A model generated the notes under the pieces. The model searched no databases. It was given only the letters and a program-made list of their open reading frames with translations, and was not told where the DNA came from. Of a DNA stretch of 64,000 nt, positions 27,543 to 48,591 are shown piece by piece; the first letter of the stretch is position 1; each line of letters opens with the position of its first letter. The position numbers and the translations under genes were made by a program. This DNA comes from an uncultured bacterium (lineage in GTDB: Bacteria; Patescibacteriota; JAHJAL01), in assembly GCA_938004065.1 (NCBI GenBank), contig CALKWM010000038.1, positions 2,466-66,465 of the forward strand, read 5' to 3'.

Positions 27543-27983
27543 TTATAGTTTTTGTTTGATGCGATCTGTCCAGGCGGTGAAATCGTCGGGAGCAACGGCA
27601 TAATAATAATCCCCCCTGTTATTTTGTCTGACTTCAACCTGAAAATTTATGGGAACTTCTTGTTCAATCAAATCCAAGATTTTTTGTGAAAATCTCCGGA
27701 AATGAGATCGAAAATCTTTTTTGACCATGATCTCAAATTCCTCATCGCCTCGATCATTGGTAACCGTCGCATAGAGGTGAATTTGGGCGGGCTGTGAAAA
27801 ACCACCCAATCCATGTCCCAAGTTTTTGAAACTTCGATTTGATTTTTGTCCTTTTTTTGTACCTTGGACTAAATTGAAGTTTCCTTTTACGACTTTTATG
27901 CCTAGTAGTTTAGCCGGTAATATTTTTGCCAAGTGTATCATCCTTTCTTTTTTCTGGGCTGGTGCGGGATCCACGGACCCCAT
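27543..27983 (-). CDS. hypothetical protein
   Basis: 146-aa ORF. Likely start at the internal Met (MIHLAKI...). No recognised motif. Confidence 0.3.
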   Translation of the reverse strand: MGSVDPAPAQKKERMIHLAKILPAKLLGIKVVKGNFNLVQGTKKGQKSNRSFKNLGHGLGGFSQPAQIHLYATVTNDRGDEEFEIMVKKDFRSHFRRFSQKILDLIEQEVPINFQVEVRQNNRGDYYYAVAPDDFTAWTDRIKQKL

Positions 27984-30900
27984 TTATCTTCGAAGATCGC
28001 TTTGTTTTTGTTAAAGATCTGCATATATTTTTGATCGTCCAATTTGGCGAAACTGGCACGACCAATATGATGGACAAACACATCATCGGTCATTACAATC
28101 TTTTTGTCAATTTGTTTAAATTTATGGGAGAGGTCATCATCTTCAAACATACCAACTTCGTACTCTTCACTTAACAATCCGACTTTTTCCAAGTCTGATT
28201 TGCGGGCAATTGTGCAAAACAATGCTAACATTTTGTTTTCATTTATTATGTCCTGATTTTTGCGAGTATATTTCCAGGCAAATTGTTGCATGCCTTCAAT
28301 ATCTCGATAATCGACATCAATTTTTTGTTCATTGCCGATTGAGTTGGTTACCGGTCCCAAAAGCCCGATGTCGGGATTGGTTTCCATGTGATAAACCATA
28401 CCCCAAATCCAGTCATTGGTAACGATGGTGTCGTTGTTTAATAAAATTATATATTCACCTTCGGCAATTTTGATGCCTTGATTGTTGGCTTTGGCAAATC
28501 CCTTGTTATCCTGATTCAAGATAATTTTGATATTGGGAAAAATGTCTGAAATTTCCTGTAAATAAGCCGGGGTACTATCTGATGAATTATTGTCGATAAT
28601 TATTAATTCATAATTGGGGTAGCGAGAGTATTTGAAAATACTTTCCAGACAATTTTTGGTGTACTCGAGATTACCAAAAGTAACTATGACAATACTAACC
28701 GAAGGATATAGTTGGTAAATTTTTTTCTCAAAATCATCGACTCGTGATTTCCAGGAATTGGCCAGAGCAACGGCCTTGCGCTTGGATATGATTTCATTGT
28801 CATTTTCATCCAGAGCTTTTTGAATATTGTCGATAAACTCTTGCTGAGATTTGGAAAAATAACAAATGTCTTGGTGATCTTTTAGTTCCGGAAGTTCGAC
28901 TGTTACAACCGCTTTCCCGGAAGAAATGTATTCGTAGAATTTAACCGGATTGGTGGCCAAAGTAAGATTATTGATTTTGAACGGGATCAGACAAACATCA
29001 AAACAAGAAAGTAAATTGGGTAATTCTTCATATTTTTTTTCGCCCAAGAGATGAACATTGGGCAGATTTTCGATTGGTCGTAAATCCGCACCATAGGTGT
29101 TGCCGATCAAGACAAAACTGTAATTTGGATAATGTTTGGCACAGCGGGCCACTAATTCACAATCAAACCAATCAGATATGGCACCATAATAGCCAATGAT
29201 CGGTTTTTTGATTAATGACTCTTGACATGAAGGTAGATTGGCAAAGTGCTTGATATCACTCCCATTTCGTATCAATGCCGTGTTTTGATTGTATTCATGG
29301 GCTTTTTGGTGTAGAGATACAGATGTTGTGATCACACAATCTGACGATGATAATAAATCATTTTCCAGATCTGATTGTTTGGTAGTATTGGTGGAAAAAC
29401 CGGAATGATCATCCATGCAGTCATAGACAATTTTGTTGCGACTAATTGTTTTAACCAAAGAAAACCAAAATGGTTGATGAACAATGGAAACACTATGACC
29501 TATTTTAAATTTGTCTTTGATGATACTGATAGACTTTTGCAGAATATTGACTTGATCTGGAGCAAGAGTGTCTTGATAGATATTAATATCCTGGGTACTT
29601 GGCAACTGAATTTGGTAAATATTTTCACAAATATTGCCAATCTTGATAGATTTTTCCAAATCAGTAGAATCGGTCCGGTTGAAAGTTGGGGAAAAATAAA
29701 ACACTCGGTGTCCCCTCTTGGCCAGTCGGGAAATAATCTGTTGCGGTCTTTGATAGCGACCATGCCAATCGATAACAGGAAAAACAAAAATATCGAGCAT
29801 AGTCTCGCGATGCAGAGTATCATCAATCAGGTCAGGATCAACTTTGTCGAGAGTGAGTTGCAAGACGCTATTGTTGGGAATGCCCGAAAACAAGCGGTGA
29901 TAGACGGGTTTGATAGTATTTTTTATGGGTTGCGGAATGTATGGAGCGAGTTTGTCGAGTTGTCGCTTGGTCTGGATGCGGGTATTGATGGTTGATTTTT
30001 TGATAAAATCCATACCTGATCGAAGAGGTTGGGTTAGTTTCCAGGAGGTGGAGGATTCTAATTCTTGGAGGCGGGATTTTAATAACGAATTTTCATTTTC
30101 TTTATCAACCAAATTCTTTAACTTTGCTTCAAGTTGGATTATTTTCTGGTCTTTTGCAAAAATATCTTCATTGAGAACAGAAAGTCGGTTTTTTAAATCC
30201 AAAATATGATTTGCAGATTTTGAAATTGAGATTTTTTTCTGAAGCTCAAGCTCCCACATATAAAAATATTTCCAATAATCGATCCATTCTTCATCTGATA
30301 TTTCATGTAAAATAATTTTTGATATTGTATTTTTGCATAGCTTATGAAACCAGAAGTCTTTTTTGAATATTAATTCCCTAAATTTGCTTGGACTATCCGA
30401 TGGTATCGTGTTTTCTAGAGAAAGAAGTTGCTGAAAAAAATTGTGGAAAAACCTCAAAGTAGGGATAATTTTGTTAGTGGTAGTGACTAATTCCCAATCA
30501 ATTATCCAATTGGAGTCATTGTTGTAGAAAATATTTTGAGCGATTAGATCGCAGTTTTGTGAATTTTTATCTCGAAGTATAAGATATTTTGATTCAAAAA
30601 AAGTCATTTCTTTCGTGGAATCTATTTGAAAAGGAGATGCAGTCGAAATATGAATATCTTGAAAAGTGTTAAACAAATCTAACCAGTCAAAAAACAGTTT
30701 GTTTGTGATTTTTTCAATATTGTCAGATTTGCATTTTTCGATAATCTTTTGCCACGAGATACCTGATGCCGGTTTTTCGAAATAGACTAGATGGTTGCTG
30801 AAAGTATATTTGTCTACCGTAACAGGAATATTTGGAAATTTTGAGGAATATATTTTTTTTACATCGTCTTCAAATCTAATAACTCTGCCAGAATCTTCGT

Positions 30901-31084
30901 TTTTGGCAATCTTGGTAATTAGAAAAGGGTTTTTTGTTCCTTGGATAAACCAGAGTACAATTATTTTCGAGTAATCTAAAATTTTGTTGGGATTGGAGTT
31001 GATCTGAATAAAAGATATATCATCTGACTCAAGATTGAATCTTATTTTGTTTTCTAAAATATATTGTTTTATCTTGTAGATCAT
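27938..31084 (-). CDS. multidomain glycosyltransferase (N-terminal unknown domain, coiled coil, GT1/GT4-like domain, C-terminal GT2 domain)
   Basis: GT2 signature VSIVIVTFGNLEYT...IIDNNSSD...GFAKANNQG...LLNNDT. GT4-like EX7E region KFYEYISSGKAVV. Coiled coil around LEAKLKNLVDKENE. Confidence 0.7.
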   Translation of the reverse strand: MIYKIKQYILENKIRFNLESDDISFIQINSNPNKILDYSKIIVLWFIQGTKNPFLITKIAKNEDSGRVIRFEDDVKKIYSSKFPNIPVTVDKYTFSNHLVYFEKPASGISWQKIIEKCKSDNIEKITNKLFFDWLDLFNTFQDIHISTASPFQIDSTKEMTFFESKYLILRDKNSQNCDLIAQNIFYNNDSNWIIDWELVTTTNKIIPTLRFFHNFFQQLLSLENTIPSDSPSKFRELIFKKDFWFHKLCKNTISKIILHEISDEEWIDYWKYFYMWELELQKKISISKSANHILDLKNRLSVLNEDIFAKDQKIIQLEAKLKNLVDKENENSLLKSRLQELESSTSWKLTQPLRSGMDFIKKSTINTRIQTKRQLDKLAPYIPQPIKNTIKPVYHRLFSGIPNNSVLQLTLDKVDPDLIDDTLHRETMLDIFVFPVIDWHGRYQRPQQIISRLAKRGHRVFYFSPTFNRTDSTDLEKSIKIGNICENIYQIQLPSTQDINIYQDTLAPDQVNILQKSISIIKDKFKIGHSVSIVHQPFWFSLVKTISRNKIVYDCMDDHSGFSTNTTKQSDLENDLLSSSDCVITTSVSLHQKAHEYNQNTALIRNGSDIKHFANLPSCQESLIKKPIIGYYGAISDWFDCELVARCAKHYPNYSFVLIGNTYGADLRPIENLPNVHLLGEKKYEELPNLLSCFDVCLIPFKINNLTLATNPVKFYEYISSGKAVVTVELPELKDHQDICYFSKSQQEFIDNIQKALDENDNEIISKRKAVALANSWKSRVDDFEKKIYQLYPSVSIVIVTFGNLEYTKNCLESIFKYSRYPNYELIIIDNNSSDSTPAYLQEISDIFPNIKIILNQDNKGFAKANNQGIKIAEGEYIILLNNDTIVTNDWIWGMVYHMETNPDIGLLGPVTNSIGNEQKIDVDYRDIEGMQQFAWKYTRKNQDIINENKMLALFCTIARKSDLEKVGLLSEEYEVGMFEDDDLSHKFKQIDKKIVMTDDVFVHHIGRASFAKLDDQKYMQIFNKNKAIFEDKWGPWIPHQPRKKKG

Positions 31085-31086
31085 GA

Positions 31087-32124
31087 TTATTTTTCTGAAA
31101 TAATGAAGTATGAAGAAACTTTACCTTGTAACTCTTCGGAATTACTTTTTTCCAGTAATTCCAATTCCTGTTTGACTGCGGTTTTTTCGTAGTCATTGAA
31201 AATATTTATTGGTAATACTTTTTCGTATAGATATTGCAGATTTTCAATATTGTCGATTTCGATTATTGCTTGATTGTCTTTGTACGATTTGACCGGATAA
31301 TAATATTTGGTTTTTTGGGTATAAAAACCGGCTTCTTTGAGAAGTTGTTGATAACCATTCATATCATAGGTGTATGTTCGATAGTCTTTTTTGTGTTTTT
31401 CTTGCATCATTGAATTGGCCGTTGCTCTATCTTGATATGATATCTGTGGTAATCCGGCATGATCGTCAGGAGCTCCGGCAAAATACTTGAGTCCATGAGA
31501 ATTTTCGATTCCGATTACTAACTGCCCTTCTTTTTTAAGCACTCTTCTGATTTCTTGCAAAGCTTGTAACTGGATGTCTCTGGGATCACCACTGGCAAAT
31601 CCTTCCGGTATCCACTCCAAAACACCTACCAAAAAAACGAAGTCGATTGTATCGTCTACAAGTGGCAATTTAGTGGTGTGGGAAACAAAATATTCATTTT
31701 TCTCATGTTTGGCTTGAATGCATCTGGTTTTTACAAAATCCACTTTGATTGGATTGGCATCAGTTGCGTAGACCTTTTGACACATACTAGAAAGTGGTTC
31801 GGTGATTTGTCCCCAACCACAGCCGATATCCAGACAAATCTTGTCTTCGAGATCAAGTAGATATAAAAAATCAGCTCTGTTTTGTGAGGTGATAATATGA
31901 TTGAGCCAAGGATTGTCGGCCGTGTATTTTTGGACTACCTCGAGCCATGGTTTTTGCTTTGACTCTTTGATTATTTTTTCTAGTATCGGAGTGTCTGAGT
32001 ATTCTATAATTGACTTGGTACGGAAATCAATGATGTTGTTTTGTTGCAAAAAAGTTTTGGAACATCGATTACAGGTATCGACGGACAAATTATGATGACA
32101 AATTGGACAGACAAATTTGGACAT
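31087..32124 (-). CDS. class I SAM-dependent methyltransferase with N-terminal zinc-ribbon
   Basis: CPICHHNL..CNRC ribbon, motif I LDIGCGWGQ. Confidence 0.6.
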   Translation of the reverse strand: MSKFVCPICHHNLSVDTCNRCSKTFLQQNNIIDFRTKSIIEYSDTPILEKIIKESKQKPWLEVVQKYTADNPWLNHIITSQNRADFLYLLDLEDKICLDIGCGWGQITEPLSSMCQKVYATDANPIKVDFVKTRCIQAKHEKNEYFVSHTTKLPLVDDTIDFVFLVGVLEWIPEGFASGDPRDIQLQALQEIRRVLKKEGQLVIGIENSHGLKYFAGAPDDHAGLPQISYQDRATANSMMQEKHKKDYRTYTYDMNGYQQLLKEAGFYTQKTKYYYPVKSYKDNQAIIEIDNIENLQYLYEKVLPINIFNDYEKTAVKQELELLEKSNSEELQGKVSSYFIISEK

Positions 32125-32155: not shown

Positions 32156-32995
32156 ATGATATCTGTAGTAGTGATTATCTATAATATGAAAAGAGAGGTA
32201 GAAAGGACATTCTACTCGCTGTCTAAATTATATCAGAAAGAAGCTAAAAATGGTTATGAAATAATTGTGGTGGACAATGGTTCTGATGAAAGATTATCAG
32301 ATGATTTTATCCTGAGTTTTGGAGATAATTTCAAATATTATTATTTGGAGAATGCTTCTGCTTCTCCCGCTAGCGCTGTGAATTTTGGGGCTAGCAAGGT
32401 CACAGGTGATATTATTGGGATTGTGATAGATGGTGCGAGAATAATATCAGATGCTGTTATTAGAAAAACAGAGAATGTCTTTGAGAAATGGAACAATCCA
32501 ATCGTAGCAGTACTTGGGTATCATTTGGGACCGGATTTGCAGTCAAAATCCATTCAAAATGGTTATTGTCAAAACGTGGAAGATAAAATACTTGAAGAAA
32601 TCGATTGGAAAAATAATCCAAACAAATTATTTGAGGTGTCGGTGCTGGCCGGTTCTAATCCTGAAGGTATGGATGGTTCTATTGCCGAGTCTAATTGTAT
32701 GTTTATCAAAAAAAGTACTTTCGAAAAAATCGGTGGGATGGATGCCAGATTTAACTCTCCAGGAGGTGGGTTGGTAAATTTGGATTTTTTTAAAAGATTA
32801 CTAGAACTGAATGACGTTCAACTGGTACTATTGAGAGATGAAGGAAGTTTTCATCAGATACATGGAGGGATAATGTCGAATGTGTCAGGAGAGGAAAAGT
32901 CGATTGAAAATTTTATAAAATACTTAGAGGAGTATAAGAAAATTACCGGCAAAGATTATGAGGTGCCGATAATAAATAATAGAGTTATTATTTAG
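32156..32995 (+). CDS. family 2 glycosyltransferase
   Basis: VVVIIYNMKREVERT...IIVVDNGSDE typical of the GT2 N-terminal region. Confidence 0.65.
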   Translation: MISVVVIIYNMKREVERTFYSLSKLYQKEAKNGYEIIVVDNGSDERLSDDFILSFGDNFKYYYLENASASPASAVNFGASKVTGDIIGIVIDGARIISDAVIRKTENVFEKWNNPIVAVLGYHLGPDLQSKSIQNGYCQNVEDKILEEIDWKNNPNKLFEVSVLAGSNPEGMDGSIAESNCMFIKKSTFEKIGGMDARFNSPGGGLVNLDFFKRLLELNDVQLVLLRDEGSFHQIHGGIMSNVSGEEKSIENFIKYLEEYKKITGKDYEVPIINNRVII

Positions 32996-32996
32996 A

Positions 32997-34139
32997 TTAT
33001 TTGACAATCCAAGAATGATTAATTTCGACAAGACCTCGATATTTTTGATTTCCAATAATTTCAAATTTGAACGCTTGTCCAACAAAATCCAGAAATTTGA
33101 TTTCATCTTTATTAAAACATACTACATTTATGTAATAATTGCCCGGAAGTAAACTTTGTTTTCGTAATATTGTTTCTATTGTTCCGTTTTTAAAAGGTTT
33201 GATTTTTATTTTGTCATGCGAAGTATTGAATCCAAAAATATACTCATTTAAATTGTCCGAATATATGCCCAACCCAAAATTTATTGATTTCGAAACATCC
33301 ATAGCCTGATATTTGATTGTAATTTTTATATCTTCCTTGGTTTTATAAATATTTTTATCACAATTTACACTACGGATCGAGACCTTAGAATTTTCAATTT
33401 TTCTGATTGTAGAAAACACATGAGACTGAATGTATCGGTTTACAATTTTTTTGGCATTATCAAAACTCTTAATTTTTCCTGACTCCATCCATATGACTTT
33501 GTCAGAAAAATTCACAATCTGTTTGAGATTGTGTGAAACAAACACAATTGTTTTTCCCTTTTCTTTAATCTCTTCAAATTTTTGAAAACATTTTTGTTGA
33601 AAACTAACATCCCCAACAGCCAATACTTCATCCAATAAGAGATTATCGAAATCGGCGTGGATGGCGACGGAAAATGCCAATCTAACATACATGCCGGAAG
33701 AAAAATGCTTTAATGGGGTATTGATGAATTTTTCTAATTCAGAGAAAGATATAATGTCATTGAGTTTTTCATCTATTTGAGACTTGGTCATGCCGAGAAG
33801 TGAGCCGTAGAGATAGATGTTGTCCAAGGCGGAAAGTTCTTCTTGAAAACCGACACCGAGCTCAAGAAATGGGCTGACTTTGCCGTTTATTTCAATTTTC
33901 CCAGTATCGGGCTCTATGATGCCGGCGAGAATTTTGAGCAAGGTGCTTTTGCCACAACCGTTTTGGCCGATAATTCCGATAAACTCTCCTTTTTTGATGT
34001 CAAAACTAATGTCGTCCAGAACTGTTAGTTTTTGACGAGTGCCACCAAACACATTGAGTAATGTGTATTTTAGTGACCGGGAAGAGACGGAATTGATCAT
34101 GAAGGACTTGGATAGGTTTTTTATTTTGATGGCGCGCAT
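32997..34139 (-). CDS. wzt: polysaccharide ABC transporter ATP-binding protein (Wzt/TagH-like with C-terminal extension)
   Basis: Walker A GQNGCGKSTLLK, signature FSSGMYVRLAFS, Walker B LLLDEVLAVGD. ~150-aa C-terminal carbohydrate-binding-type extension. Confidence 0.85.
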   Translation of the reverse strand: MRAIKIKNLSKSFMINSVSSRSLKYTLLNVFGGTRQKLTVLDDISFDIKKGEFIGIIGQNGCGKSTLLKILAGIIEPDTGKIEINGKVSPFLELGVGFQEELSALDNIYLYGSLLGMTKSQIDEKLNDIISFSELEKFINTPLKHFSSGMYVRLAFSVAIHADFDNLLLDEVLAVGDVSFQQKCFQKFEEIKEKGKTIVFVSHNLKQIVNFSDKVIWMESGKIKSFDNAKKIVNRYIQSHVFSTIRKIENSKVSIRSVNCDKNIYKTKEDIKITIKYQAMDVSKSINFGLGIYSDNLNEYIFGFNTSHDKIKIKPFKNGTIETILRKQSLLPGNYYINVVCFNKDEIKFLDFVGQAFKFEIIGNQKYRGLVEINHSWIVK

Positions 34140-34332: not shown

Positions 34333-35100
34333 CTACAGTTGCTCGGCGAAGGAACGTTGGGAGCGTTGAAAAATAACTAGTCCTAAAATTAATATAAGAA
34401 AAATTCCAAAAAGATGAAGCCAGGGATAATATGGGAGAGTCGGATAATCAAACGTAATAAATATCAGGCGAAAGTCGGTGATAATTTGGGCGATTGGGTT
34501 AATCATCAGATATTTATCATATGGTGAGGTAATCATACTAAAAGGGTAAATGATGGGAGTGGCGTAAAAAAATATTTGCAGAAATAATTCCCAGATATAC
34601 GATATGTCACGATAGCGGACATACAAACTAGACAAGATTAGTGCTAGTGAGAATCCCAAAACCCATAGTTCAATGATATAAAGTGGAGCCAATAAAGTTT
34701 TCAGGTGAAAAACATCGATCTTGAAAATTATCATGAGAATAATCAGAACCATAACATTGAAAGATAAATTTATCAAAGCGCTGAAAGATGAGACTAGTAC
34801 AATAATTATCCTAGGAAAATAGATTTTTTTGATCAAGGAGGAACGTTGGACGATTGAATGTAGCCCATTGGTGGTAACTTCGACAAAAAAATTCCACAAG
34901 ACTATACCGATGAGCAAATACATCGGAAAATTGGGAACGGAATCGCCAAAACGGAGCATTTGGGCGAATACTATATAGAGAACCAAAAACAATCCTAGTG
35001 GCTTCAAAAACGACCAGAGATATCCCAAGACCGACCCCGAGTAGCGGAGTTTGAAGTCGGTGTAAGTGAGTTGGCGGATTATTTCGAGGTTTTGTTTCAT
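34333..35100 (-). CDS. wzm: ABC-2 type polysaccharide exporter permease (Wzm/TagG-like)
   Basis: 6-TM ABC-2 permease immediately upstream of wzt. Overlaps the next gene by 4 nt. Confidence 0.8.
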   Translation of the reverse strand: MKQNLEIIRQLTYTDFKLRYSGSVLGYLWSFLKPLGLFLVLYIVFAQMLRFGDSVPNFPMYLLIGIVLWNFFVEVTTNGLHSIVQRSSLIKKIYFPRIIIVLVSSFSALINLSFNVMVLIILMIIFKIDVFHLKTLLAPLYIIELWVLGFSLALILSSLYVRYRDISYIWELFLQIFFYATPIIYPFSMITSPYDKYLMINPIAQIITDFRLIFITFDYPTLPYYPWLHLFGIFLILILGLVIFQRSQRSFAEQL

Positions 35101-35867
35101 TTGATCTTTTTCAATACAAAATAATGATGAAGGCCAACTAGCGTCATAATGGGACTGATAATGTATTCGAAAGCTTTGAGAGCAGGAAAGGCAAAGTTGG
35201 GAAGTTTTTGATCAAGCCAGATTCCACCTGTAGCAATATAGCGGATAAATCCAAATGGTTTATGATAGACCAGTTTAAATTGAGGGAATAATTTCTGAAA
35301 TTTTTCTTTGTCTCTTTTGAGAAGTAAATAACTCAGGGCTTGATTACTACCGGACATAGGACCGGACTTTTCTAGTTGCCACACAGATGCGTATTCGTCG
35401 AACGGCTCGGGATGGATATTTTTGTATAGATATTTGGCAAGCGGACTCCAGTATGGCTCTACCATAACCAATCCCCCACCCGAGATTAATACTCTGTCTG
35501 CTTCATGAAAAAATTTGGTGACATCGGGAATGTGGTGTAGGACATGCACGGCGAATATTGAATTGAGAGAATTGTTATCAAAGGGAATATTTTGGGCATC
35601 AATGATATGATCGACATTTTCCACTTCTTTGACGTCTGAGGTAATAATATCAGGATACAAATCTTTTAAGAAACCTCCACCTGAACCAAGTTCGAGTATT
35701 TTATCACCATCATCGAGAAATTTTTTATTTAGCGACATCATATGATGATAAATTTCTGAGTAAACGTCGTTTAGACATTTCTTGTTTCTCATAATTTCTA
35801 CCGCTTGCAAGGTAGTCTCGGGAGAGTCAAAGTCTATCTCCTGATATTCTTTTGGTTGGATAATCAT
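35097..35867 (-). CDS. class I SAM-dependent methyltransferase
   Basis: Motif I ILELGSGGGFL, acidic residue DIITSD. Confidence 0.65.
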   Translation of the reverse strand: MIIQPKEYQEIDFDSPETTLQAVEIMRNKKCLNDVYSEIYHHMMSLNKKFLDDGDKILELGSGGGFLKDLYPDIITSDVKEVENVDHIIDAQNIPFDNNSLNSIFAVHVLHHIPDVTKFFHEADRVLISGGGLVMVEPYWSPLAKYLYKNIHPEPFDEYASVWQLEKSGPMSGSNQALSYLLLKRDKEKFQKLFPQFKLVYHKPFGFIRYIATGGIWLDQKLPNFAFPALKAFEYIISPIMTLVGLHHYFVLKKIK

Positions 35868-36245
35868 TTAAATAGTTTCTTGATTAAAACCGGCGATGAT
35901 AAATATGCCAATAATTATCAAAAATGTTCCCAATAAATGCGACCAGCTGATATTCTCGTGAATAACCATATATGCAGCCAAAAAATTGAAAATATATGTC
36001 AAAGCTGTTAGAGGGATAACCAAGGAAAGTTGGTAGTGGGATAAAAGATAAAAGAACAGAATCATAGATATGCCGTAAAATATTATTCCTAGTATGATTT
36101 TGAATGACAAGAAAAGTGAAATAATGTTTCCGGGGTTTTGGAATGTAAAAGGGTTGGTGGCAAGCTCCAACTTCCAGAAAGTATTGGCGGCGGCATTGAG
36201 CAATGTCGCTAGTAAAATTGGAATTAATAATTTGAGAATGCTCAT
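35868..36245 (-). CDS. small 4-TM membrane protein (SMR/DMT-like, candidate lipid-linked sugar flippase subunit)
   Basis: 125 aa with four hydrophobic segments. Size and context resemble ArnE/ArnF or GtrA-type proteins. Confidence 0.4.
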   Translation of the reverse strand: MSILKLLIPILLATLLNAAANTFWKLELATNPFTFQNPGNIISLFLSFKIILGIIFYGISMILFFYLLSHYQLSLVIPLTALTYIFNFLAAYMVIHENISWSHLLGTFLIIIGIFIIAGFNQETI

Positions 36246-38150: not shown

Positions 38151-38239
38151 GTATTTAATGAATCATGTTTATAATTAATATATATGCAAACAAATGCTTG
38201 CATGCGTGAAGTCTGATATCTTTTTATATTATCTAATAT

Positions 38240-40973: not shown

Positions 40974-40974
40974 A

Positions 40975-41397
40975 ATGTTTGATTTGTTGGACAAAGTGAA
41001 TACGAACAGAATTCAAATTTTTGCTATCATTGGTAGTATATTGTTTTTTGGTTTTGTATTTGAATTGGTGAGAAAAAGAAAGATAAGAGAGCAGTATGCT
41101 TTACTGTGGTTGTTTTTTGGACTTGTTTTTTTAGTTATATCGATATGGCGTGGTTTGCTGGAAAAAATTTCGATAATGCTTGGGATTGTTTATCCACCAG
41201 CGGCTTTTTTGTTGATATTGATAATAGCCATATTTTTGATTTTGATTCAGTATTCCGTAGTAATTTCGCAATTGACTGAGAAAACAAAAAAAATGAGTCA
41301 GGAGATTGGTTTGCTGAAGGAGAAGTTGAATAGAAAAAAGAATAGAAATCACAGCAAAATAAAAATTAAGGAATTGAATTCGATAAGCAACAAGTAA
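40975..41397 (+). CDS. DUF2304-family small membrane protein
   Basis: IQIFAIIGSILFFGFVFELVRKRKI...LLWL pattern and position right after the Dpm1-like gene match DUF2304. Confidence 0.55.
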   Translation: MFDLLDKVNTNRIQIFAIIGSILFFGFVFELVRKRKIREQYALLWLFFGLVFLVISIWRGLLEKISIMLGIVYPPAAFLLILIIAIFLILIQYSVVISQLTEKTKKMSQEIGLLKEKLNRKKNRNHSKIKIKELNSISNK

Positions 41398-41504: not shown

Positions 41505-42158
41505 ATGCAACTAATTGAAATCGTAAAACAATCGGATAAAATCCTCGATATCGGGACCGGCCCCGCAGGGTCGCATTTTTATCCATATGCAAAACCGGAG
41601 ACCATTATTGTCGGGATTGATAAATACAACAAACCGGAAGTGGAGCATCCGAATTTTATATATGAAGCGTTGGACGCGATGGATCTGGATAAAGTTGGCA
41701 CAGGATTATTTTCGAAATTCAAACCGGGGTGGATGGAATATTTTGATCTGGTAGTAGCTGATCATGTGATGGAGCATGTCAGTAATCCCGAAAAATTGGT
41801 AACAGGAATTAAAAAAGTATTAAAAAAAGACGGGATTGCACATATCGCGATTCCCGATCCAAATAATTTCACTGAGAAATTTTATCACCTGATTCATCCA
41901 GAGGGTGGTGGACATGTGAGCAAAATTCCAAAAAAAGAACTAATTGCTCTTTTTGAAAAGCATGGTTTTGAGTTGTTGTATTATACTGACATACCTGATG
42001 ATTGGAAGTGGTTGGAATTTTTGTATGATTGGAAACGAAGAGGGATCAAATATTTTGCCAATGAGGATATAAAATCTATCGTGGAGACTTTCCGGAAGGA
42101 ACTAACGGCGGAGAAAGGGTATTTTTATGGCGGTGAGTATTTTTGGCGGAGGAAATGA
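41505..42158 (+). CDS. class I SAM-dependent methyltransferase
   Basis: ILDIGTGPAG motif I, VVADHVMEHV. Confidence 0.6.
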   Translation: MQLIEIVKQSDKILDIGTGPAGSHFYPYAKPETIIVGIDKYNKPEVEHPNFIYEALDAMDLDKVGTGLFSKFKPGWMEYFDLVVADHVMEHVSNPEKLVTGIKKVLKKDGIAHIAIPDPNNFTEKFYHLIHPEGGGHVSKIPKKELIALFEKHGFELLYYTDIPDDWKWLEFLYDWKRRGIKYFANEDIKSIVETFRKELTAEKGYFYGGEYFWRRK

Positions 42159-42290
42159 CAAATTGGTAGGGACAGGTTTGAAACCTGTCCCTACCAAAAG
42201 GACAACCCGAGGGTTGCCCCTACAAATAATCATACGCCACCCTGGTTCACGAAAAACATGTGGATGGTACGGATGATGATGAAATGATTT

Positions 42291-42713
42291 TTATTTTTCT
42301 ATTATGTGCTTTTTGACAAACTTTTCAATCGCTGAAACTGTTTCTTCTTTCATATCAGGTGGACTGCTCGCAATCCAAACGGCGAAATTATAGAACTCAA
42401 CATTGTCGACTTGCAACCATTTGCCATTTTTTTCCAAAAATACCAAGAGTGCAGTGATAGCGATTCGTTTGTTGCCATTTTGAAACGGATGATTTTTTAT
42501 CATTAGATAAAACAATATTGCCGCTTTTCCTGCCAATCCTTTGTATAATGGCTTTTTATCGAATTTTTGAAATGGTACCAGAAGGCAACTTTCAAGAATC
42601 TTGGGGTAACGAGTGAAAAAGTCCGGAATTGGCTCCTGATAATCCATGTACTTCTTGGCGATATAAAAAGCGATTTTTTCTACCTCGGCCAATTTTATGG
42701 ATTTGATTGCCAC
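42291..42713 (-). CDS. doc: Fic/Doc-family toxin (death-on-curing)
   Basis: HPFQNGNKRIAITA matches the Doc variant of the Fic motif H-x-F-x-x-G-N-K-R. Confidence 0.75.
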   Translation of the reverse strand: MAIKSIKLAEVEKIAFYIAKKYMDYQEPIPDFFTRYPKILESCLLVPFQKFDKKPLYKGLAGKAAILFYLMIKNHPFQNGNKRIAITALLVFLEKNGKWLQVDNVEFYNFAVWIASSPPDMKEETVSAIEKFVKKHIIEK

Positions 42714-42716
42714 TTT

Positions 42717-42974
42717 TTATTCCTCCCCCAATAATTCGAGTGTGTGCCCATAATCCTTGATTACCCGATCTACTACTCTTTTAATATTTTTTTCTCTCTG
42801 CTTGGAGACTTCAAAGCCAAAAATATCCGTCAAATCCGTTGTGTCTATCACATAGTTGCGACCAACTTTTTGCGCTTTTATTTCTCCCGATTTGATTTTC
42901 TTGAAAACCGCAACATGGGAGATCCCCAATAATTGAGCTAAATCGTTGGTAGAGATTAAATTTTGTTTTTTCAT
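42717..42974 (-). CDS. putative antitoxin with excisionase/MerR-type HTH DNA-binding domain
   Basis: LISTNDLAQLLGISHVAVFKKIKSGEI HTH. 3-nt spacing to doc. Confidence 0.5.
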   Translation of the reverse strand: MKKQNLISTNDLAQLLGISHVAVFKKIKSGEIKAQKVGRNYVIDTTDLTDIFGFEVSKQREKNIKRVVDRVIKDYGHTLELLGEE

Positions 42975-43301
42975 ATCTTAACTTATGTTTTATAATTAAT
43001 ATATATTAACTTACTATATATAGGTTAACATATTATTAATTTTATTTCAATAGGATAATTTAAGAGAAAAATAAAGGAGGGAGATGATATATTTGTAGGG
43101 GCAATTCCCGCCCAAGGCGGACAGGAGCAACCTGTCCCTACGGGAAATCACACCTCACCACGGTTTACAAAAAACATTCTGACAGTGCGGGGGATGATAA
43201 TTTGATACAAAGTGATCGAATATATTTATTGACCTGAAATTTATATTTGTTTCTTTAAGATAAATAATTATAGAGATAAGATATTTATAAATCTGTCCAA
43301 C

Positions 43302-43737
43302 ATGAAGCCGCTAAATATTGTAATTTTTGAAGTAACAGATTGAGTCGGAAAAACAACTGCTTTCAATAATCTGACAAACTACAGTTTTTATTACATCGAT
43401 CGTTTCACCGGATCGGGGTTTGTTTACGACTCTATTTATGGTCGAGCAGATAATCGTAGTCGGATTATTAATTTTAAAAAAGAATTTTTTAAAAATTAAT
43501 AATGCCATTGTATTTATGGTCTATTTACATTGTGCCCGGAAAGAACAAATTAAACGGATACGACAGTATGACGAAAAATATTTGGACCGAATAGAAAAAT
43601 TGGATTTATCTTTGGAAGGATATCGAGAGTATTTAACATTAACACCTAATAAAATAATTATTGATACTACCAGTTCCTCTCCTAAAAATACAGTCAAAGA
43701 AATTTTGGAACAAATAAATAGGTATTTAAAAAGATAA
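43302..43737 (+). pseudogene. thymidylate/deoxynucleoside-kinase-like P-loop kinase disrupted by an in-frame TGA and a frameshift
   Basis: Reading from 43302 gives MKPLNIVIFEVTD*VGKTT...YYIDRFTGSGFVYDSIYG (P-loop and DRY..S..AY motif). The downstream ORF 43420-43737 continues a kinase-like C-terminus in another frame. Confidence 0.4.
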
Positions 43738-43743
43738 TAGTAT

Positions 43744-44187
43744 CTAGCTTTTTTTTACCGCCATTTTTATTTGTGCTCTGGTACCAGTAGGAGAATCAAT
43801 GCCAATCGTATCCAATGCGTCAATTTCCTCGATGTCAAACCAACCATAATCCATAAGTTCCGGAGATAATTTCACTTTAGTTTTGTTGTTATCAATATCT
43901 ACCAAAAAAATTAAGCCCAGGCGATAGATGTCGTTAGAGTCTTTTTGCCAACTGTAACTATGCAAATATTTTACAGGTGTGTCAGATGTAATTTTTATGC
44001 CTACTTCTTCATAAATTTCTCGAATTAAAGTTTGTTCCACCGATTCGCCAATTTCCATTTTCCCTCCCAGATTTTGCCATTTCCCGGGAAAAATATCGTC
44101 GTTTATATTTCTTCTAACTAGAAGATATTTGTGAGCGCTATTTTTTATAACGGCAATTACGGATACAATTTGTAATAAATTGGTCAT
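43744..44187 (-). CDS. Nudix hydrolase
   Basis: Nudix box GGKMEIGESVEQTLIREIYEEVGI. Confidence 0.8.
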   Translation of the reverse strand: MTNLLQIVSVIAVIKNSAHKYLLVRRNINDDIFPGKWQNLGGKMEIGESVEQTLIREIYEEVGIKITSDTPVKYLHSYSWQKDSNDIYRLGLIFLVDIDNNKTKVKLSPELMDYGWFDIEEIDALDTIGIDSPTGTRAQIKMAVKKS

Positions 44188-44270
44188 GGTTTTTTGATAA
44201 TAATTTTACGGATCTATCTCCCCGCCCTTTGGGCAATTCAGAATGTTCAGTTATTCAAACCACCTTCATT

Positions 44271-44640
44271 TCTCAGGATGACAGAGATCCTGAATCGCTC
44301 GAGCGCTCGTATAACTCGCCTCGGGTTCAGGATGACATTGTAATTTGTTTGGAATTTGATTAGACAAGGATGGGTGGAACAACGTAGAACTCCTTCCATT
44401 TCTTAAGATGACAGAGATCCTGAATCGCTCGAGTGCTAGTATAACTCGCCTCGGGTTCAGGATGACATTGTGATTTGTTTGGAATTTGATTAGACAAGGA
44501 TGGGTGGAACAACGTAGAACTCCTTCCATTTCTTAAGATGACAGAGATCCTGAATCGCTCGAGTGCTCGTATAACTCGCCTCGGGTTCAGGATGACATTG
44601 TGATTTGTTTTCCGCCCAAGGCGGACCAGTCATAAACTGG
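44271..44640. repeat. tandem array, ~2.8 copies of a 130-bp unit (hairpin element GAGATCCTGAATCGCTCGAG..GGGTTCAGGATGACA + 73-bp spacer)
   Basis: Unit starts at 44284, 44414 and 44544. Spacers are identical between units. Confidence 0.8.
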
Positions 44641-44672
44641 GGAAATTGGAAATTGATACTTGGAAATTGTCC

Positions 44673-46040
44673 TCAAACCCCTCCCCTATTTACAAAAAAC
44701 ATTCTGACAGTGCGGAGGATAATGATGAAATCCAGGAAAAGTGATCGGTTTTTGAGGTAATAGAGATCGTACTGGAGTTTTTCGTCGGCGTCGGAAAAGG
44801 ACGCGCTGTAGTTCATATTGATTTGCGCCCAACCGGTTAATCCCGGTTTGATGAGATGTCTTTTGTAATATAATTTTTGTCGTTGTTCCAGTTTGCCAGT
44901 AAATTCCGGCCGTTCGGGACGGGGACCGACGAGACTCATGTCCCCTATCAAAATATTCCAAAATTGCGGGAGCTCATCGAGACAAGATTTGCGCAGGAAT
45001 CGGCCGATGTTGGTAACTCGGTTGTCGTGGGTGGTAGCCCATTTGGCTTTTTTGGTTTCGGCATTTACCGTCATGGTGCGAATTTTGTAGAGATTGAATA
45101 CTTGATTATTGATGCCCATCCGAGATTGCGAGTAGAAAAACGGACCGCGAGAGTCGATTTTGACCAGAATGTATAATAGTGGAAATAAAATAACAAAAAT
45201 AATTAATCCGATCAAACCGGCCACGATATCGATCAATCTCTTGAAATAGATATTGATTTTATGCGGAGAGTGGTTGATATTGGCAAAAATTATCTGGCTG
45301 ATATGCTCCAAGGGGATTTTGCCGGTTAGGTGCTCGTACAGGTAAGAGATGTCAATCAGTTGAGCGTGGTTGGTCAAGCAGTAATCGGTAATTATCGCCA
45401 ATTCATCATGATGGTTGGACAATTTGTTGATGTCCAGAACGATAACATCGATTTGCCGGCGAGCGAGAATTTTTTTGATGTCACCGAGGTGACCGATAGT
45501 TTTTAATTGATTGTTGCGAATAGATTGATTGGTAACTATCATACCGTTTAATTGATAGCCAAAAGAGGGATTGGAATTGATCAGGCGAGATAAATTGGAT
45601 TCAAATTTCTGATTGCCGATAATAATGATTTTTTTTAACAGTGGGCGGGAGATGAAGATTTTGTTGAAAATTATCCGCCAGACAAAAAGGGAAAAGCCGG
45701 TAACTAAAAGCAGGATAATCAAAATAGTTTTGGGGGTAATGTTGAAGGCGGGAAAACTGTAAAAAAAGATAATTGATATGATAAAGTTAATTATAGATGA
45801 GCGAAGAGTGGCATAGGTTAAAAATTGTATATTGGAAAACTGAAAATAGTCGTAAAGTTGGTTGATATAGTACACAATCAGCCAGAGGACAAAAACCGGA
45901 ATAAAGACATACAAATGCTCGCGATAGTTGTAAAAAATATCGTTTAATATTTGGTATCGGATAAAAACACTTAGCCAGAGGGCGAGGATCAAAATACACA
46001 GGTCGCCCGAAAATAATGTAAGACGTTTAACGAGATTCAT
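44673..46040 (-). CDS. polyprenyl-phosphate hexose-1-phosphate transferase (WbaP/WcaJ-like bacterial sugar transferase)
   Basis: N-terminal TM bundle and C-terminal catalytic domain with DELPQFWNILIGDMSLVGPRPERPEF and a terminal ...RTVRMFFVNRGGV. Confidence 0.85.
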   Translation of the reverse strand: MNLVKRLTLFSGDLCILILALWLSVFIRYQILNDIFYNYREHLYVFIPVFVLWLIVYYINQLYDYFQFSNIQFLTYATLRSSIINFIISIIFFYSFPAFNITPKTILIILLLVTGFSLFVWRIIFNKIFISRPLLKKIIIIGNQKFESNLSRLINSNPSFGYQLNGMIVTNQSIRNNQLKTIGHLGDIKKILARRQIDVIVLDINKLSNHHDELAIITDYCLTNHAQLIDISYLYEHLTGKIPLEHISQIIFANINHSPHKINIYFKRLIDIVAGLIGLIIFVILFPLLYILVKIDSRGPFFYSQSRMGINNQVFNLYKIRTMTVNAETKKAKWATTHDNRVTNIGRFLRKSCLDELPQFWNILIGDMSLVGPRPERPEFTGKLEQRQKLYYKRHLIKPGLTGWAQINMNYSASFSDADEKLQYDLYYLKNRSLFLDFIIILRTVRMFFVNRGGV

Positions 46041-46389: not shown

Positions 46390-48591
46390 GTGAAATTAAA
46401 TAAAAATTATCCCACGTATTATTATCTCGATGTGGCAATGCAGTTTTTCCTGATTTTGGCATTGACGCTGGTACCAATTTACTTTACGACCATGATCCAC
46501 AACTCTTTTACAATCGAGAAACATGTTATTTTCCGCGTCTGTGTACTGCTCATGTTTGCAATCGGCGTGATCAAATATTCATATTTTAGTGCTCGAAAGT
46601 TACCCAAGGTTTTCTGGTTGATGCCTTTGTTTGGTTTGGTGGGAGTACTTTCGACAATTTTTTCGATCAATCCGGCGGTCAGTTTGTGGGGTATTCATCT
46701 GCGGATGGACGGATTGGTAAATATGTTGTTTCTGGTGATGTTTTTTGTGTTGGCATATCTGCAGTTGGATACCAAAACCAAGATAAAACAAGTGATATTG
46801 GCCATCGTGTTGGGTTCGATAATACCGGTTGTCTATGCCATCATGCAAAAAATTGGCGCCGATCCGCTGGAATGGAAAGGGGTAAATGCGGAGGAAAGGG
46901 TGTTTGGCACTACCGGTAACCCGGCTTATCTCGGCGCCTATTTGTTGTTTACCATTCCTCTAACTTGCTATCTGGGAATAAAATACAATTCTCTCAAAAA
47001 ATATTTTTTTTATGTACTTGGTTTGGCTTCAATCTATGTTTTGATCCTGACCTGGACGAGAGCGGCTTATCTGGCTTTGGGATTGGAAATATCAATTTTG
47101 GCTATGGCGTATTTTTGGATGAGCCATAAAAAACGGCTGTTTTATGTTTTTTCGGGACTGATATTGGCGGGAATACTATTTGTCGGGGCGTTAAATGTAA
47201 ATCCCGGCTTGGTAAACACTTTGGGGAACAATCGCTATCTGGAAAGATTGTCGCAACTTACGCAAACTACCGAGGGGACGGGAAAAGACAGGTTGGAAAT
47301 GTGGAAAATTTCGGTTAAAGCGATCGAAGAAAGACCGTTACTGGGTGCCGGTTTGAGTCAGTATATCCAGTATTTCAATAAATACTATCCAAATTACATG
47401 GACGCTCGCCCGGACAAAGACCGTTACAGCAATTATTCTCACAATCTCTGGCTAGATACGGGAGTGGCACATGGATTGGCCGGGATTTTGGTTCTGCTTT
47501 CCATTTATGCCTCTTTTATCTGGTTGGGTCTTAAAAAAATGCGCGCTCAGGAAACTCTGGAGGAAAAATTTTTGTATCTTTCGGTTATAGTAGCGATTTT
47601 GGGCTATCTCACTCAGGCAATGTTCAATATCGAAACAATTATTACCTGGGAATATAGTTTTGGACTGTTGGCAGTATTGCTGGCGATGGTAAATTTAAAC
47701 GAAGAGCAAGAACTGCATTCTAAATCCCCTACCGTCTGGAAACAAATTTTGACGACGGTGCTAGTGGTGGCGGGATTGGTTGGTGTTTATTTTCTCGCAA
47801 TCAATCCTTGGTCGGCGGATAAAAATTATTTCTATGTCAATAGTGCAAATCTGCCGATTGATCAAAAATTGGCACTGGCTCAGGAGGCGGAAATATTTAC
47901 CCCCTATTTTGAATATGCTCCAATCAGGATTGGTGATATCTATGCTTCGCAAATTGATTTAAGCAAAACCCAAGAAGCCACAGATTTATTTACTAATTCG
48001 GTTGAACAAGTGAACAAAGCCCTCGCTATTAACCCGCTTAATTACAAAAACTATATGTCGCTGGCGACCATCTACGGATCGTGGGCAAGGATAGACAATA
48101 CCAAATTGGTACAAGCCGAAGAGCATTTCAAAAAAGCTAAAACGATGAGTCCGAACCGACTGGATTTACATTGGACATGGGGCAATGTTTATCTGGATTT
48201 AAATATGGTGGACAAAGCCCATGAGCAATACGAAGAAGCCCGGAAATTGAATCCGGAAATTGGAGAAACATATTTCAATTTGGCAAAAGTGGCGATTTTG
48301 CAAGGCGAGCAACAACAGGCCGATGAATTTTTGCAAACAGCTTTGGATAAAGGATATGTTTATGAAGAGTTAAAATTTTACCAGGATATGGCACTGATGG
48401 TTTACAAGCAAAGTAATTTTTTACTGGCCGGTTCGTTGGCCGGGCGGGCCAATGAAATATCCGTGTCTGAAATGTCGGCCATGATCGAAATCCAAGCTAA
48501 TTTGGAATTGGATCAAAGCGATGTGGCCGGTTCCTTGTTGAATGAGTATAGCAAACTTGTCCCGGGGTTGGAGGAGAAGTTTCAACAATAA
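46390..48591 (+). CDS. O-antigen ligase/polymerase-like (Wzy_C) membrane protein fused to C-terminal TPR repeats
   Basis: ~12 TM N-terminal region containing LTWTRAAYLALGLE (Wzy_C-like). C-terminal ~250 aa with TPR-like helices (ATIYGSWARIDN..AEEHFKKAKTMSPN..). Confidence 0.65.
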   Translation: MKLNKNYPTYYYLDVAMQFFLILALTLVPIYFTTMIHNSFTIEKHVIFRVCVLLMFAIGVIKYSYFSARKLPKVFWLMPLFGLVGVLSTIFSINPAVSLWGIHLRMDGLVNMLFLVMFFVLAYLQLDTKTKIKQVILAIVLGSIIPVVYAIMQKIGADPLEWKGVNAEERVFGTTGNPAYLGAYLLFTIPLTCYLGIKYNSLKKYFFYVLGLASIYVLILTWTRAAYLALGLEISILAMAYFWMSHKKRLFYVFSGLILAGILFVGALNVNPGLVNTLGNNRYLERLSQLTQTTEGTGKDRLEMWKISVKAIEERPLLGAGLSQYIQYFNKYYPNYMDARPDKDRYSNYSHNLWLDTGVAHGLAGILVLLSIYASFIWLGLKKMRAQETLEEKFLYLSVIVAILGYLTQAMFNIETIITWEYSFGLLAVLLAMVNLNEEQELHSKSPTVWKQILTTVLVVAGLVGVYFLAINPWSADKNYFYVNSANLPIDQKLALAQEAEIFTPYFEYAPIRIGDIYASQIDLSKTQEATDLFTNSVEQVNKALAINPLNYKNYMSLATIYGSWARIDNTKLVQAEEHFKKAKTMSPNRLDLHWTWGNVYLDLNMVDKAHEQYEEARKLNPEIGETYFNLAKVAILQGEQQQADEFLQTALDKGYVYEELKFYQDMALMVYKQSNFLLAGSLAGRANEISVSEMSAMIEIQANLELDQSDVAGSLLNEYSKLVPGLEEKFQQ

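Follow-up and report, generated by a model that had tools for sequence, protein, structure and literature searches.

Gene content and conserved core of the locus

The stretch of DNA analysed here (the window: 64,000 nucleotides of contig CALKWM010000038.1, from an uncultured member of the Patescibacteria) carries at 27938-48591 a large group of glycan biosynthesis and export genes, which includes a Wzm/Wzt ATP-binding cassette (ABC) transporter and a multidomain glycosyltransferase of 1048 amino acids (aa). This kind of locus is largely ordinary, and our analysis suggests that the new detail is an unrecognised kinase-like "stop" module on the main polymerase. A large glycan locus with a Wzm/Wzt exporter had been proposed from the letters alone (the sequence-only reading), and this held in the hidden Markov model (HMM) domain searches that had been named beforehand as its refuting test: Pfam and NCBIfam scans of the window open reading frames (ORFs) recovered every domain that had been called, each in its place and with E-values well past chance level, while the ORF positions agreed exactly and 27938 and 48591 are genuine ORF ends. 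The genes and domains on which the argument rests are as follows.

27938-31084, minus strand: 1048-aa polymerase-terminator, with an N-terminal kinase-like domain, helical linker, GT-B/GT4-like module and GT2 module
30230-31084, minus strand: protein-kinase/APH-like domain of the polymerase (residues 1 to ~285; conserved motifs, weak fold matches), proposed glycan-end kinase
30050-30220, minus strand: helical linker of the polymerase (residues ~289-345), probable short coiled coil and candidate ruler
28028-29797, minus strand: GT-B/GT4-like module (residues ~430-781) and GT2 module (794-1019) of the polymerase (Pfam, NCBIfam), proposed two-module polymerase
31087-32124, minus strand: MT1, class I S-adenosylmethionine (SAM) methyltransferase with an N-terminal Cys4 zinc-ribbon-like segment, proposed kinase partner
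32156-32995, plus strand: stand-alone GT2 of 279 aa (Pfam), adaptor or third polymerase module
32997-34139, minus strand: Wzt, ABC nucleotide-binding subunit (ABC_tran and Wzt_C) with a carbohydrate-binding module (CBM; residues ~246-380, at 33000-33404) at its C-terminus
34333-35100, minus strand: Wzm, ABC-2 permease (ABC2_membrane, 46 bits; NCBIfam galactan and KpsM permease models)
41505-42158, plus strand: MT3, core methyltransferase (Methyltransf_23)
44673-46040, minus strand: large polyprenyl-phosphate glycosyl-1-phosphate transferase of 455 aa, the priming enzyme (Bac_transf, TIGR03025)
46390-48591, plus strand: Wzy_C-family ligase/O-oligosaccharyltransferase of 733 aa, with C-terminal tetratricopeptide repeats (TPR; residues ~530-730)

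The region had been taken as a single contiguous locus. The linkage of its core genes is conserved, but comparison with three related loci (L086, L082 and L084) points to a composite of a core, an accessory block and inserted islets, since the closest relative is without the block. This relative, L086 (65-80% protein identity), has the order priming transferase, MT3, Wzm, a Methyltransf_24 gene, Wzt, GT2, MT1, big glycosyltransferase and trmD, and it lacks the MT2, ArnE-like, 300-aa, Gfo, GT-C, 234-aa GT2, DUF2304, Fic, HTH and NUDIX genes of the window. In the more distant L082 and L084 (44-60% identity) the priming transferase and a divergent Wzy_C-TPR gene adjoin Wzm, Wzt with its CBM, methyltransferases and a large multidomain glycosyltransferase, and in L082 and L086 (44-80% identity) they lie directly beside these genes. 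The conserved linkage marks the core genes as one functional unit and suggests that the Wzm/Wzt pathway is the one in which both priming transferase and ligase act. This core is made up of the priming transferase, Wzm, Wzt with its CBM, GT2, methyltransferases, the 1048-aa polymerase and the Wzy_C-TPR ligase. The three methyltransferases claimed for the locus were all found by Pfam; MT1 and MT3 are core genes and MT2 lies in the accessory block.

The locus is flanked by housekeeping genes (trmD, pseudouridine synthase, PBP2 and iPGM), and the DNA comes from a metagenome contig (ERZ724098). The closest relatives of its Wzt and Wzm are overwhelmingly from metagenome-assembled genomes (MAGs) of Saccharibacteria and Patescibacteria, and Patescibacteria (the candidate phyla radiation) have a monoderm envelope and a reduced genome. 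A tblastn search with all of the locus proteins against 80 Wzt loci, mostly titled Saccharibacteria, showed that only Wzm and Wzt were common to them (a Wzy_C gene lay within 10 kb in 14), so that the content of such loci is highly variable and synteny is not usable there. No Wzx, Wzz or LCP genes were found among the window ORFs scanned, and a teichuronic-acid-type (Tua) pathway was rejected because of the absence of Wzx and Wzz; a lipopolysaccharide (LPS) O antigen was rejected because the host is taken to be monoderm and the window holds no lipid A or LPS-transport genes.

A kinase-like domain on the polymerase

The 1048-aa protein had been described as a trifunctional glycosyltransferase consisting of an unassigned part, a GT4-like part and a GT2 part. 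Both glycosyltransferase regions were recovered (Glyco_trans_1_4, 30 bits, and a TuaH-like match over residues 501-781, E = 6e-25; GT2, 101 bits) and the unassigned part was found to resemble a kinase. Residues 331-1048 are conserved in other loci, with 65% identity in L086 and 49% in P0123, the L082 polymerase, and also in P0122, and the stand-alone GT2 is at the same position in L086 (67%) and L082 (49%). The N-terminal position of the same polymerase chassis is occupied by two methyltransferase domains in P0122 and by a different domain, of unrecognised type, in P0123, which suggests that this position hosts interchangeable modules; L084 encodes a 1593-aa methyltransferase-glycosyltransferase fusion. 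Interchangeable terminator modules likewise organise WsaE, WbbB and ORF6-O7 (PMC2943079, PMC11231755).

Residues 1-330 of the window protein are nearly an orphan. An exhaustive HMMER search of 1.84 billion cluster representatives returned only P0124 and P0126, the latter a distant relative of 400 aa with a kinase-like part and a coiled coil, and a metagenome scan added the L086 orthologue of the N-terminal domain (61% identity). The kinase-like domain has only about four relatives among the ~1.8 billion representatives searched. A word-indexed homologue search with polymerase residues 1-440 gave no match and a second search, with a three-sequence profile, gave P0124 only. Kinase motifs are nonetheless conserved across the four relatives, namely K58 (the beta3 Lys/Arg), E72 (alphaC), a hinge-like FEKP at 102-105, and a catalytic loop [H/N]xD179xxxxN184IF followed ten residues on by IID196[W/F]E198. 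P0124 has a sub-threshold match to Pfam APH (E = 7e-4) which falls exactly on the kinase-like region. When the three-sequence profile was compared with PDB, the top five matches were kinases (KSR1/2), aligned on HxDLxxxN...DFG at a weak E of 0.04. An AlphaFold model from the three-sequence alignment, of low predicted local distance difference test score (pLDDT 47.5), gave the b1-b2-b3-aC-b4-b5 order of a kinase N-lobe, and the top 50 Foldseek matches were all protein kinases or APH(3'), at the weak values of E ~1e-3 and TM 0.17. A single-sequence AlphaFold model of residues 1-440 (pLDDT 38) was unusable for the fold. The kinase profile was also compared, by hhalign, with the N-terminus of P0123; no relationship was found, the only match being a chance "IIDWE"-like string where the GT-B module starts, so that the IIDWE motif is not relied on alone.

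Beyond the kinase-like domain lies the linker, which has 56 residues without Pro or Gly, is placed in continuous helices by the AlphaFold models (at 289-329 and 291-330) and has a heptad pattern in sliding 28-residue windows starting at residues 291-301. Taken together, the alignments and models make it likely that what had been left unassigned at the N-terminus of the polymerase consists of a divergent kinase-like domain and a probable short coiled coil. This combination suggests a likely chain terminator, with a cap that is more likely to be methyl-phosphate than plain O-methyl, and by analogy the domain may work like the WbdD family, yet it is not a sequence member of it.

Several of our observations weigh against this interpretation. 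In the window protein Asn takes the place of the canonical His of HxD, the PDB profile, AlphaFold and Foldseek results are all weak as statistics, and PDB sequence and profile searches found no sequence similarity to WbdD. The heptad signal over the whole linker is not significant against shuffles (207/2000), and the linker, at only about 40-55 residues, is much shorter than the WbdD coiled coil; on both counts its function as a ruler is put forward as a proposal. Finally, an MT1-like methyltransferase lies beside the L082 polymerase, which has no kinase-like domain, and so MT1 could cap chains by plain O-methylation.

MT1 and the nature of the proposed cap

MT1 (345 aa) had been called a Zn-ribbon methyltransferase, which agrees with a Methyltransf_11 match of 63 bits and with the CxxC...CxxC read in its N-terminal sequence. 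The MT1 gene ends 2 nt ahead of the polymerase start, and in L086, where MT1 is 73% identical, the pairing of MT1 and kinase-like domain is kept. At an unrelated locus, L089, an MT1 orthologue (40% identity, E = 7e-67) directly precedes P0126, the stop of one overlapping the start of the other, and this would be an independent instance of the proposed terminator pair, in a stand-alone WbdD-like arrangement. L089 (positions 2-3809 of a farmland soil contig, ERZ1823573) encodes the MT1-like protein, P0126 and a 527-aa GT2, near two further GT2 genes and YfhO.

In Klebsiella O7, "methyltransferase-kinase enzyme pairs" have been described in which the kinase domain was unannotated and distantly aminoglycoside-kinase-like; the pair makes a methyl-phosphate terminus and the Wzt CBM requires that terminus for export (PMC11231755). 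As MT1 and the kinase-like domain match WbdD of Escherichia coli O9a and ORF6 of Klebsiella O7 in this pairing, the best model, by analogy, is a methyl-phosphate cap that would be recognised by the Wzt CBM. The three methyltransferases had been taken as consistent with a terminally methylated polymer; a methyltransferase role in capping is retained here, but a plain methyl group appears less likely than methyl-phosphate.

It is possible, though we hold it to be the less probable outcome, that chains are terminated by simple O-methylation, as in E. coli O8 and by WsaE of Geobacillus, and that the N-terminal domain is a pseudokinase scaffold, a nucleotide-binding regulator or a substrate-binder. 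The presence of three methyltransferases in the locus, of methyltransferase domains at the N-terminal position of P0122 and of an MT1-like gene in the kinase-less L082 would all fit such a mechanism, as would the replacement of the canonical His and the weakness of all of the kinase statistics. A dead scaffold, on the other hand, would need none of the catalytic Asp, Asn, Mg-binding Asp, beta3 Lys/Arg and alphaC Glu which are conserved in the four relatives, and the MT1-kinase pairing in L089 mirrors known methyltransferase-kinase terminators.

Export, priming and ligation

The exporter was as expected, with matches to Wzt_C, ABC_tran and ABC2_membrane bearing out a Wzm and a Wzt with a C-terminal glycan-binding extension. 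Wzt matches ABC_tran at 78 bits and Wzt_C at 58.4 bits (cut-off 30.4; residues 260-372). Its best solved relative is a 404-aa "ABC transporter" chain (8dku/7k2t, E = 2e-64) for which the match reaches residue 363, well inside the C-terminal domain, and its PDB matches also include TagH/TarH (E ~1e-50). For Wzm the identity is 79% with L086 and 60% with L082 and with L084, and the nucleotide-binding domain of Wzt is 74% identical in L086 and 56% in L082/L084. For the CBM the identity is 50% with L086, which has the same terminator, and 23-28% with L082/L084, which have other terminators. This suggests that divergence of the CBM tracks the type of terminator, a weak signal in the expected direction.

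The priming transferase had been called WbaP-like. It does belong to the large phosphoglycosyltransferase family (Bac_transf, 221 bits; TIGR03025, 368 bits against a cut-off of 296), with an N-terminal membrane domain preceding the catalytic domain, but it misses the equivalog cut-offs of WbaP (215 against 403) and of WcaJ (320 against 411). In L082-L085 its gene neighbours that of the Wzy_C-TPR protein, and the two are divergently oriented.

The neighbouring O-antigen-ligase-like protein matches both Wzy_C (82 bits, cut-off 31.7) and TPR, has about 12 hydrophobic segments and has orthologues of 45-62% identity in Patescibacteria MAGs, in keeping with the fusion that had been read from its sequence. 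Among 35 homologues R301 and H351 are invariant and R224, N352 and D356 nearly so; R224, R301 and H351 are, we presume, the essential Arg/Arg/His set of WaaL and PglL, in or around the large external loop. By crude hydropathy four hydrophobic segments follow the large loop (269-362), which predicts that the TPR tail is outside the cell. The fusion had been thought unusual and is not, as more than 100 were retrieved (from Patescibacteria, Thermoflexales and others) and the predicted O-oligosaccharyltransferases WsfB and PglL also bear a C-terminal TPR, while Geobacillus has a separate TPR protein beside WsaB (PMC2943079). By analogy with WsfB and PglL the fusion argues, indirectly, for a protein-glycosylating enzyme, and a protein acceptor may be favoured by the TPR tail.

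The next gene after the ligase is a candidate acceptor only.

48864-51080, plus strand: 738-aa secreted protein with 7 GloVer (Gloeo_Verruco) repeats

It has a signal-like N-terminal hydrophobic segment and a TIGR03803 match of 258 bits, and its C-terminal ~145 aa match CPR_Pam_pilin_C (pilin subunit of the Pam pilus system) at 27.5 bits against a cut-off of 55; no publication on a "Pam pilus" was found in the literature searched.

A more doubtful alternative is that the polymer is a secondary cell-wall polymer or lipoglycan, attached to peptidoglycan or a membrane lipid by the Wzy_C-TPR enzyme or by an LCP protein encoded elsewhere. In its favour, exporters of teichoic acid (TagH/TarH) and of mycobacterial galactan are among the solved relatives and NCBIfam matches of Wzt and Wzm, the GT-B module is similar to TuaH, which serves teichuronic acid synthesis, conservation of gene neighbourhood does not extend to the candidate protein acceptor, and WaaL-type Wzy_C enzymes ligate to glycolipid (there is a weak match to 7tpg). 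Set against these are the absence of LCP genes among the scanned window ORFs, the position of the ligase gene as the conserved partner of the priming-transferase gene, and the C-terminal TPR, which has been described for protein O-oligosaccharyltransferases as given above. We know of no Wzy_C enzyme that ligates to peptidoglycan.

An accessory block between Wzm and MT3

Between the divergent core operons lie the following genes.

35097-35867, minus strand: MT2 methyltransferase (Pfam)
35868-36245, minus strand: 125-aa protein with four transmembrane segments, ArnE/ArnF-like, candidate polyprenyl-phosphate-sugar flippase (NCBIfam; Pfam EamA, 29 bits)
36242-38150, minus strand: cassette of a 300-aa protein (36242-37144) and a Gfo/Idh/MocA oxidoreductase (37125-38150; Pfam), proposed to modify a sugar precursor
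38240-40312, plus strand: 690-aa polytopic GT-C-like protein (ArnT/PMT_2 family; PMT_2, hydropathy), proposed extracytoplasmic transferase
40269-40973, plus strand: polyprenyl-phosphate sugar synthase (GT2, 234 aa; NCBIfam PpgS, PDB relatives)
40975-41397, plus strand: DUF2304 membrane protein (DUF2304, 88 bits)

From its gene content and position, 35097-41397 is a predicted Arn/Gtr-like block for extracytoplasmic glycosylation, inserted in the region of divergent promoters that separates Wzm from MT3. Overlapping or abutting reading frames join it to both divergent core operons: MT2, which is absent from L086, L082 and L084, has a 4-nt overlap with the start of Wzm, and on the other strand the series GT-C, GT2, DUF2304 leads into MT3. 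The MT3 of L086 is 70% identical, and 12 bp separate it from the priming-transferase gene's end.

The 125-aa protein, which has four hydrophobic segments, matches ArnE (E = 1.6e-10; 41 bits against 92) and ArnF (E = 1e-8), both below the curated cut-offs. For the 234-aa GT2 the top 7 of 9 PDB matches are of the polyprenyl-phosphate-sugar-synthase type, namely DPMS (E = 2e-13), the glycosyltransferase sll0501 and the undecaprenyl-phosphate 4-deoxy-4-formamido-L-arabinose transferase, and its PpgS match is of 110 bits against an equivalog cut-off of 370. The mycobacterial PpgS/Rv3632 pair likewise has a DUF2304 protein beside the synthase. The 690-aa protein has about 12-14 hydrophobic segments, a match to LIC_10190 (36 bits, below cut-off) and no PDB relative by sequence. 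The set of synthase, DUF2304, ArnE/F-like and GT-C-like proteins thus appears to match three-component extracytoplasmic glycosylation, which is documented also for glycans of the ABC-transporter pathway (PMC11127046).

The 300-aa protein had been listed as of unknown family, and searches of Pfam (at E up to 10) and PDB indeed gave no match. It is not an orphan, as it has full-length homologues of 31-39% identity, next to oxidoreductases of 27-31%. In polysaccharide loci on Bacteroides thetaiotaomicron and Rhodovulum plasmids a Gfo/Idh/MocA gene is followed, in the same order, by a homologue of the 300-aa protein (34-39% identity; L087, 7952-9873; L088, 7913-9885). Adjacency of the pair across phyla suggests a conserved sugar-modifying function, and the Gfo/Idh/MocA gene and its hypothetical partner of ~290-300 aa seem to form a cassette of two genes for modifying sugars, as yet uncharacterised and shared between phyla.

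It is unlikely that the GT-C protein and the synthase are an independent Pmt/Ppm1-like protein O-glycosylation or ArnT-like lipid/wall modification system inserted by chance, which would not decorate the polymer exported by Wzm/Wzt. In favour of such a system, the only family match of the GT-C protein is PMT_2 (protein mannosyltransferases, ArnT), the synthase resembles DPMS and the block is dispensable to the core pathway, being absent from L086. Against it, the fusion of the block's genes into both divergent core operons fits co-expression with the polymer pathway, and side-chain addition by three components is documented for ABC-transporter-dependent glycans (PMC11127046).

A model for assembly of the glycan

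Our preferred reading, to which we give a probability of roughly 0.6, is that the locus is an ABC-transporter-dependent assembly line for a capped and probably length-controlled surface glycan of a monoderm Patescibacteria cell. The large phosphoglycosyltransferase (44673-46040) would prime polyprenyl phosphate, and the chain would then be extended and polymerised in the cytoplasm by the stand-alone GT2 with the GT4-like and GT2 modules of the 1048-aa protein, as their domains and conservation suggest. By analogy with WbdD (E. coli O9a) and ORF6 (Klebsiella O7), the kinase-like domain, held off the polymerase modules by the helical linker, would phosphorylate the non-reducing end, and the translationally coupled MT1 would methylate this phosphate, at which point growth would stop. 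The Wzt CBM would recognise the cap, so that Wzm/Wzt would export finished chains only. In the window locus (L086 being without the block) the accessory proteins may make and flip a lipid-linked modified sugar and add it as a side branch outside the cell. The Wzy_C-TPR enzyme would finally move the finished glycan from its lipid carrier to an acceptor, which is the least certain step; the most likely acceptor is a protein of the surface, S-layer or pilus, with the glycan on its Ser, Thr or Tyr, on the pattern of S-layer glycosylation in Geobacillus and Paenibacillus.

To the points already raised against the kinase-like terminator must be added some that bear on the model as a whole. The adjacency of the 738-aa protein to the ligase is not conserved in L082 or L084, the PMT_2 match of the GT-C-like protein is marginal (27.4 bits against a cut-off of 26.1), and the locus contains neither nucleotide-sugar synthesis genes nor an identified acceptor.

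The locus as a whole is designed most like the S-layer glycosylation (slg) clusters of Gram-positive bacteria, and the logic of its terminator is closest to that of Klebsiella O7 ORF6 and WbdD. The slg clusters known from Geobacillus stearothermophilus NRS 2004/3a and from Paenibacillus alvei, whose components are WsaP, Wzm/Wzt, WsaE and WsaB/WsfB (PMC2943079), are likewise those of monoderm bacteria and combine a priming phosphoglycosyltransferase of the WbaP type, cytoplasmic polymerisation by a multidomain enzyme that also bears the terminating activity, Wzm/Wzt export which is thought to read the capped end, and final transfer by a Wzy_C enzyme with TPR (fused in WsfB, separate, as WsaA, in Geobacillus). 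They differ in that their terminator is a fused methyltransferase, whereas a kinase-like domain and a separate methyltransferase are proposed here; our locus also has no rml or other nucleotide-sugar genes and no identified S-layer protein gene, has the extra Arn/Gtr-like block, and belongs to a member of the Patescibacteria.

As in ORF6-O7 and in WbbB of K. pneumoniae O12, the putative terminator lies beyond a helical or coiled-coil spacer with the glycosyltransferase modules C-terminal to it in the same polypeptide (PMC11231755, PMC3482155), and a further likeness, to ORF6-O7 and to WbdD (from E. coli O9a and K. pneumoniae O3), is that a methyltransferase pairs with a putative cryptic domain resembling aminoglycoside kinases and that the Wzt has a CBM. 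Unlike those systems, ours has no detectable sequence similarity to WbdD or other known terminators, its methyltransferase is a separate protein, its spacer is much shorter, a large phosphoglycosyltransferase primes instead of WecA, and the product cannot be an LPS O antigen. The accessory block has in common with GtrA/GtrB/Gtr*, ArnC/ArnE-F/ArnT, PpgS-Rv3632-Rv3779 and the Citrobacter GT136 systems (PMC11127046) a GT2 synthase, a small candidate flippase, a putative GT-C protein and proposed sugar-modifying auxiliaries. It is unlike them in that no member in the window reaches an equivalog cut-off, the GT-C protein is without a PDB sequence relative, and the auxiliaries are a Gfo/Idh/MocA oxidoreductase and a conserved hypothetical protein.

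A bolder version of the model can be offered only tentatively, as we think it rather improbable in full: that this is a serotype-switching surface system, in which a methyl-phosphate-capped, length-controlled and protein-O-linked glycan is varied by terminators swapped between lineages (an orphan kinase in the window and L086, double methyltransferases in P0122, another unrecognised domain in L082), by a co-varying CBM and by hotspot inserts, and that the kinase-like domain founds a new family of glycan-end kinases. If true, it would bear on host recognition by episymbionts or on their evasion of phage.

The surface glycoconjugates of Patescibacteria are essentially uncharacterised. No account of O-antigen-ligase-type or Wzt-type systems in Patescibacteria or Saccharibacteria turned up in the literature searched, and the terms glycan, polysaccharide, S-layer, glycosyl and teichoic are all absent from a recent perspective on the Patescibacteria; a Southlakia study found three predicted extracellular-polysaccharide biosynthesis genes to be essential or growth-deficient on inactivation. 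Given a host-attached lifestyle, it is plausible that attachment, recognition by the immune system and sensitivity to phage depend on the outermost glycan. For such a glycan the locus offers methyl-phosphate as candidate cap and the linker as candidate ruler, together with a checkpoint at the CBM, a ligase and a module for optional side branches. It would extend the polymerase-terminator paradigm, which comes from Enterobacteria, to an ultrasmall monoderm lineage, and would add to Klebsiella O7 a second case in which standard domain searches miss a cryptic terminator of kinase-like type.

Inserted islets and neighbouring genes

At the 3' end of the priming-transferase gene two islets are inserted between three direct repeats.

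42230-44726, no strand: two islets between three direct repeats, inserts at 42284-44672 (repeats, Pfam)
Islet B: Fic/DOC at 42291-42713; HTH_17 at 42717-42974
Islet A: shikimate-kinase-like fragment at 43420-43737; NUDIX at 43744-44187; 130-nt tandem repeat at 44258-44647

Two further copies of the final ~55 nt of the priming-transferase gene (44673-44726) lie at 43148-43201 (83% identity) and 42230-42283 (69%). The "integration islets" of the sequence-only reading are thus borne out, in that direct repeats of the gene end bracket inserted genes, although without an integrase, none being seen in the islets. The islets are absent from L086. An analogous duplicated priming-transferase gene end is present in L084 (5679-5783), and the gene's 3' end has the look of an att-like hotspot at which insertion recurs. 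Rfam and tRNA scans of the window were empty, and the islets are therefore not tRNA-targeted. The 130-nt unit, in 2.7 tandem copies (96% matches) immediately downstream of the priming-transferase gene, covers an 87-aa ORF (44266-44529) which, lying inside the repeat, is probably no gene; the ORF has no match in Pfam (at E up to 10) or PDB. The unit contains a hairpin, but its folding is no stabler than that of shuffles (z -0.3, -1.2) and it has no Rfam match.

At the other end of the locus a further gene overlaps the 3' end of the polymerase gene, and its membership of the locus is uncertain.

27543-27983, minus strand: 146-aa basic protein

It has no family match in Pfam (at E up to 10) or PDB and is not conserved in L086.

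Beyond the 738-aa protein, a 211-aa ORF with a response-regulator receiver domain (33 bits) lies at 52173-52808, with the surface-protein genes on one side and iPGM on the other; the scanned ORFs include no histidine kinase that could be its partner. A run of large genes on the minus strand at 54890-63985 probably encodes surface proteins, among them an 877-aa protein without a family match, a 1474-aa protein with Laminin_G_3, a 260-aa protein with a sub-threshold Lcl_C match and a 355-aa protein with Peptidase_S74, an intramolecular chaperone typical of phage tail spikes and fibres. Several of the housekeeping proteins look long for their families (15444-17393, 18115-19296 and 26566-27519), which suggests internal insertions: the IPPT match covers residues 44-370 for a profile of 243 positions, and Radical_SAM (MiaB-like) and tRNA_m1G_MT (TrmD) each match in two stretches.

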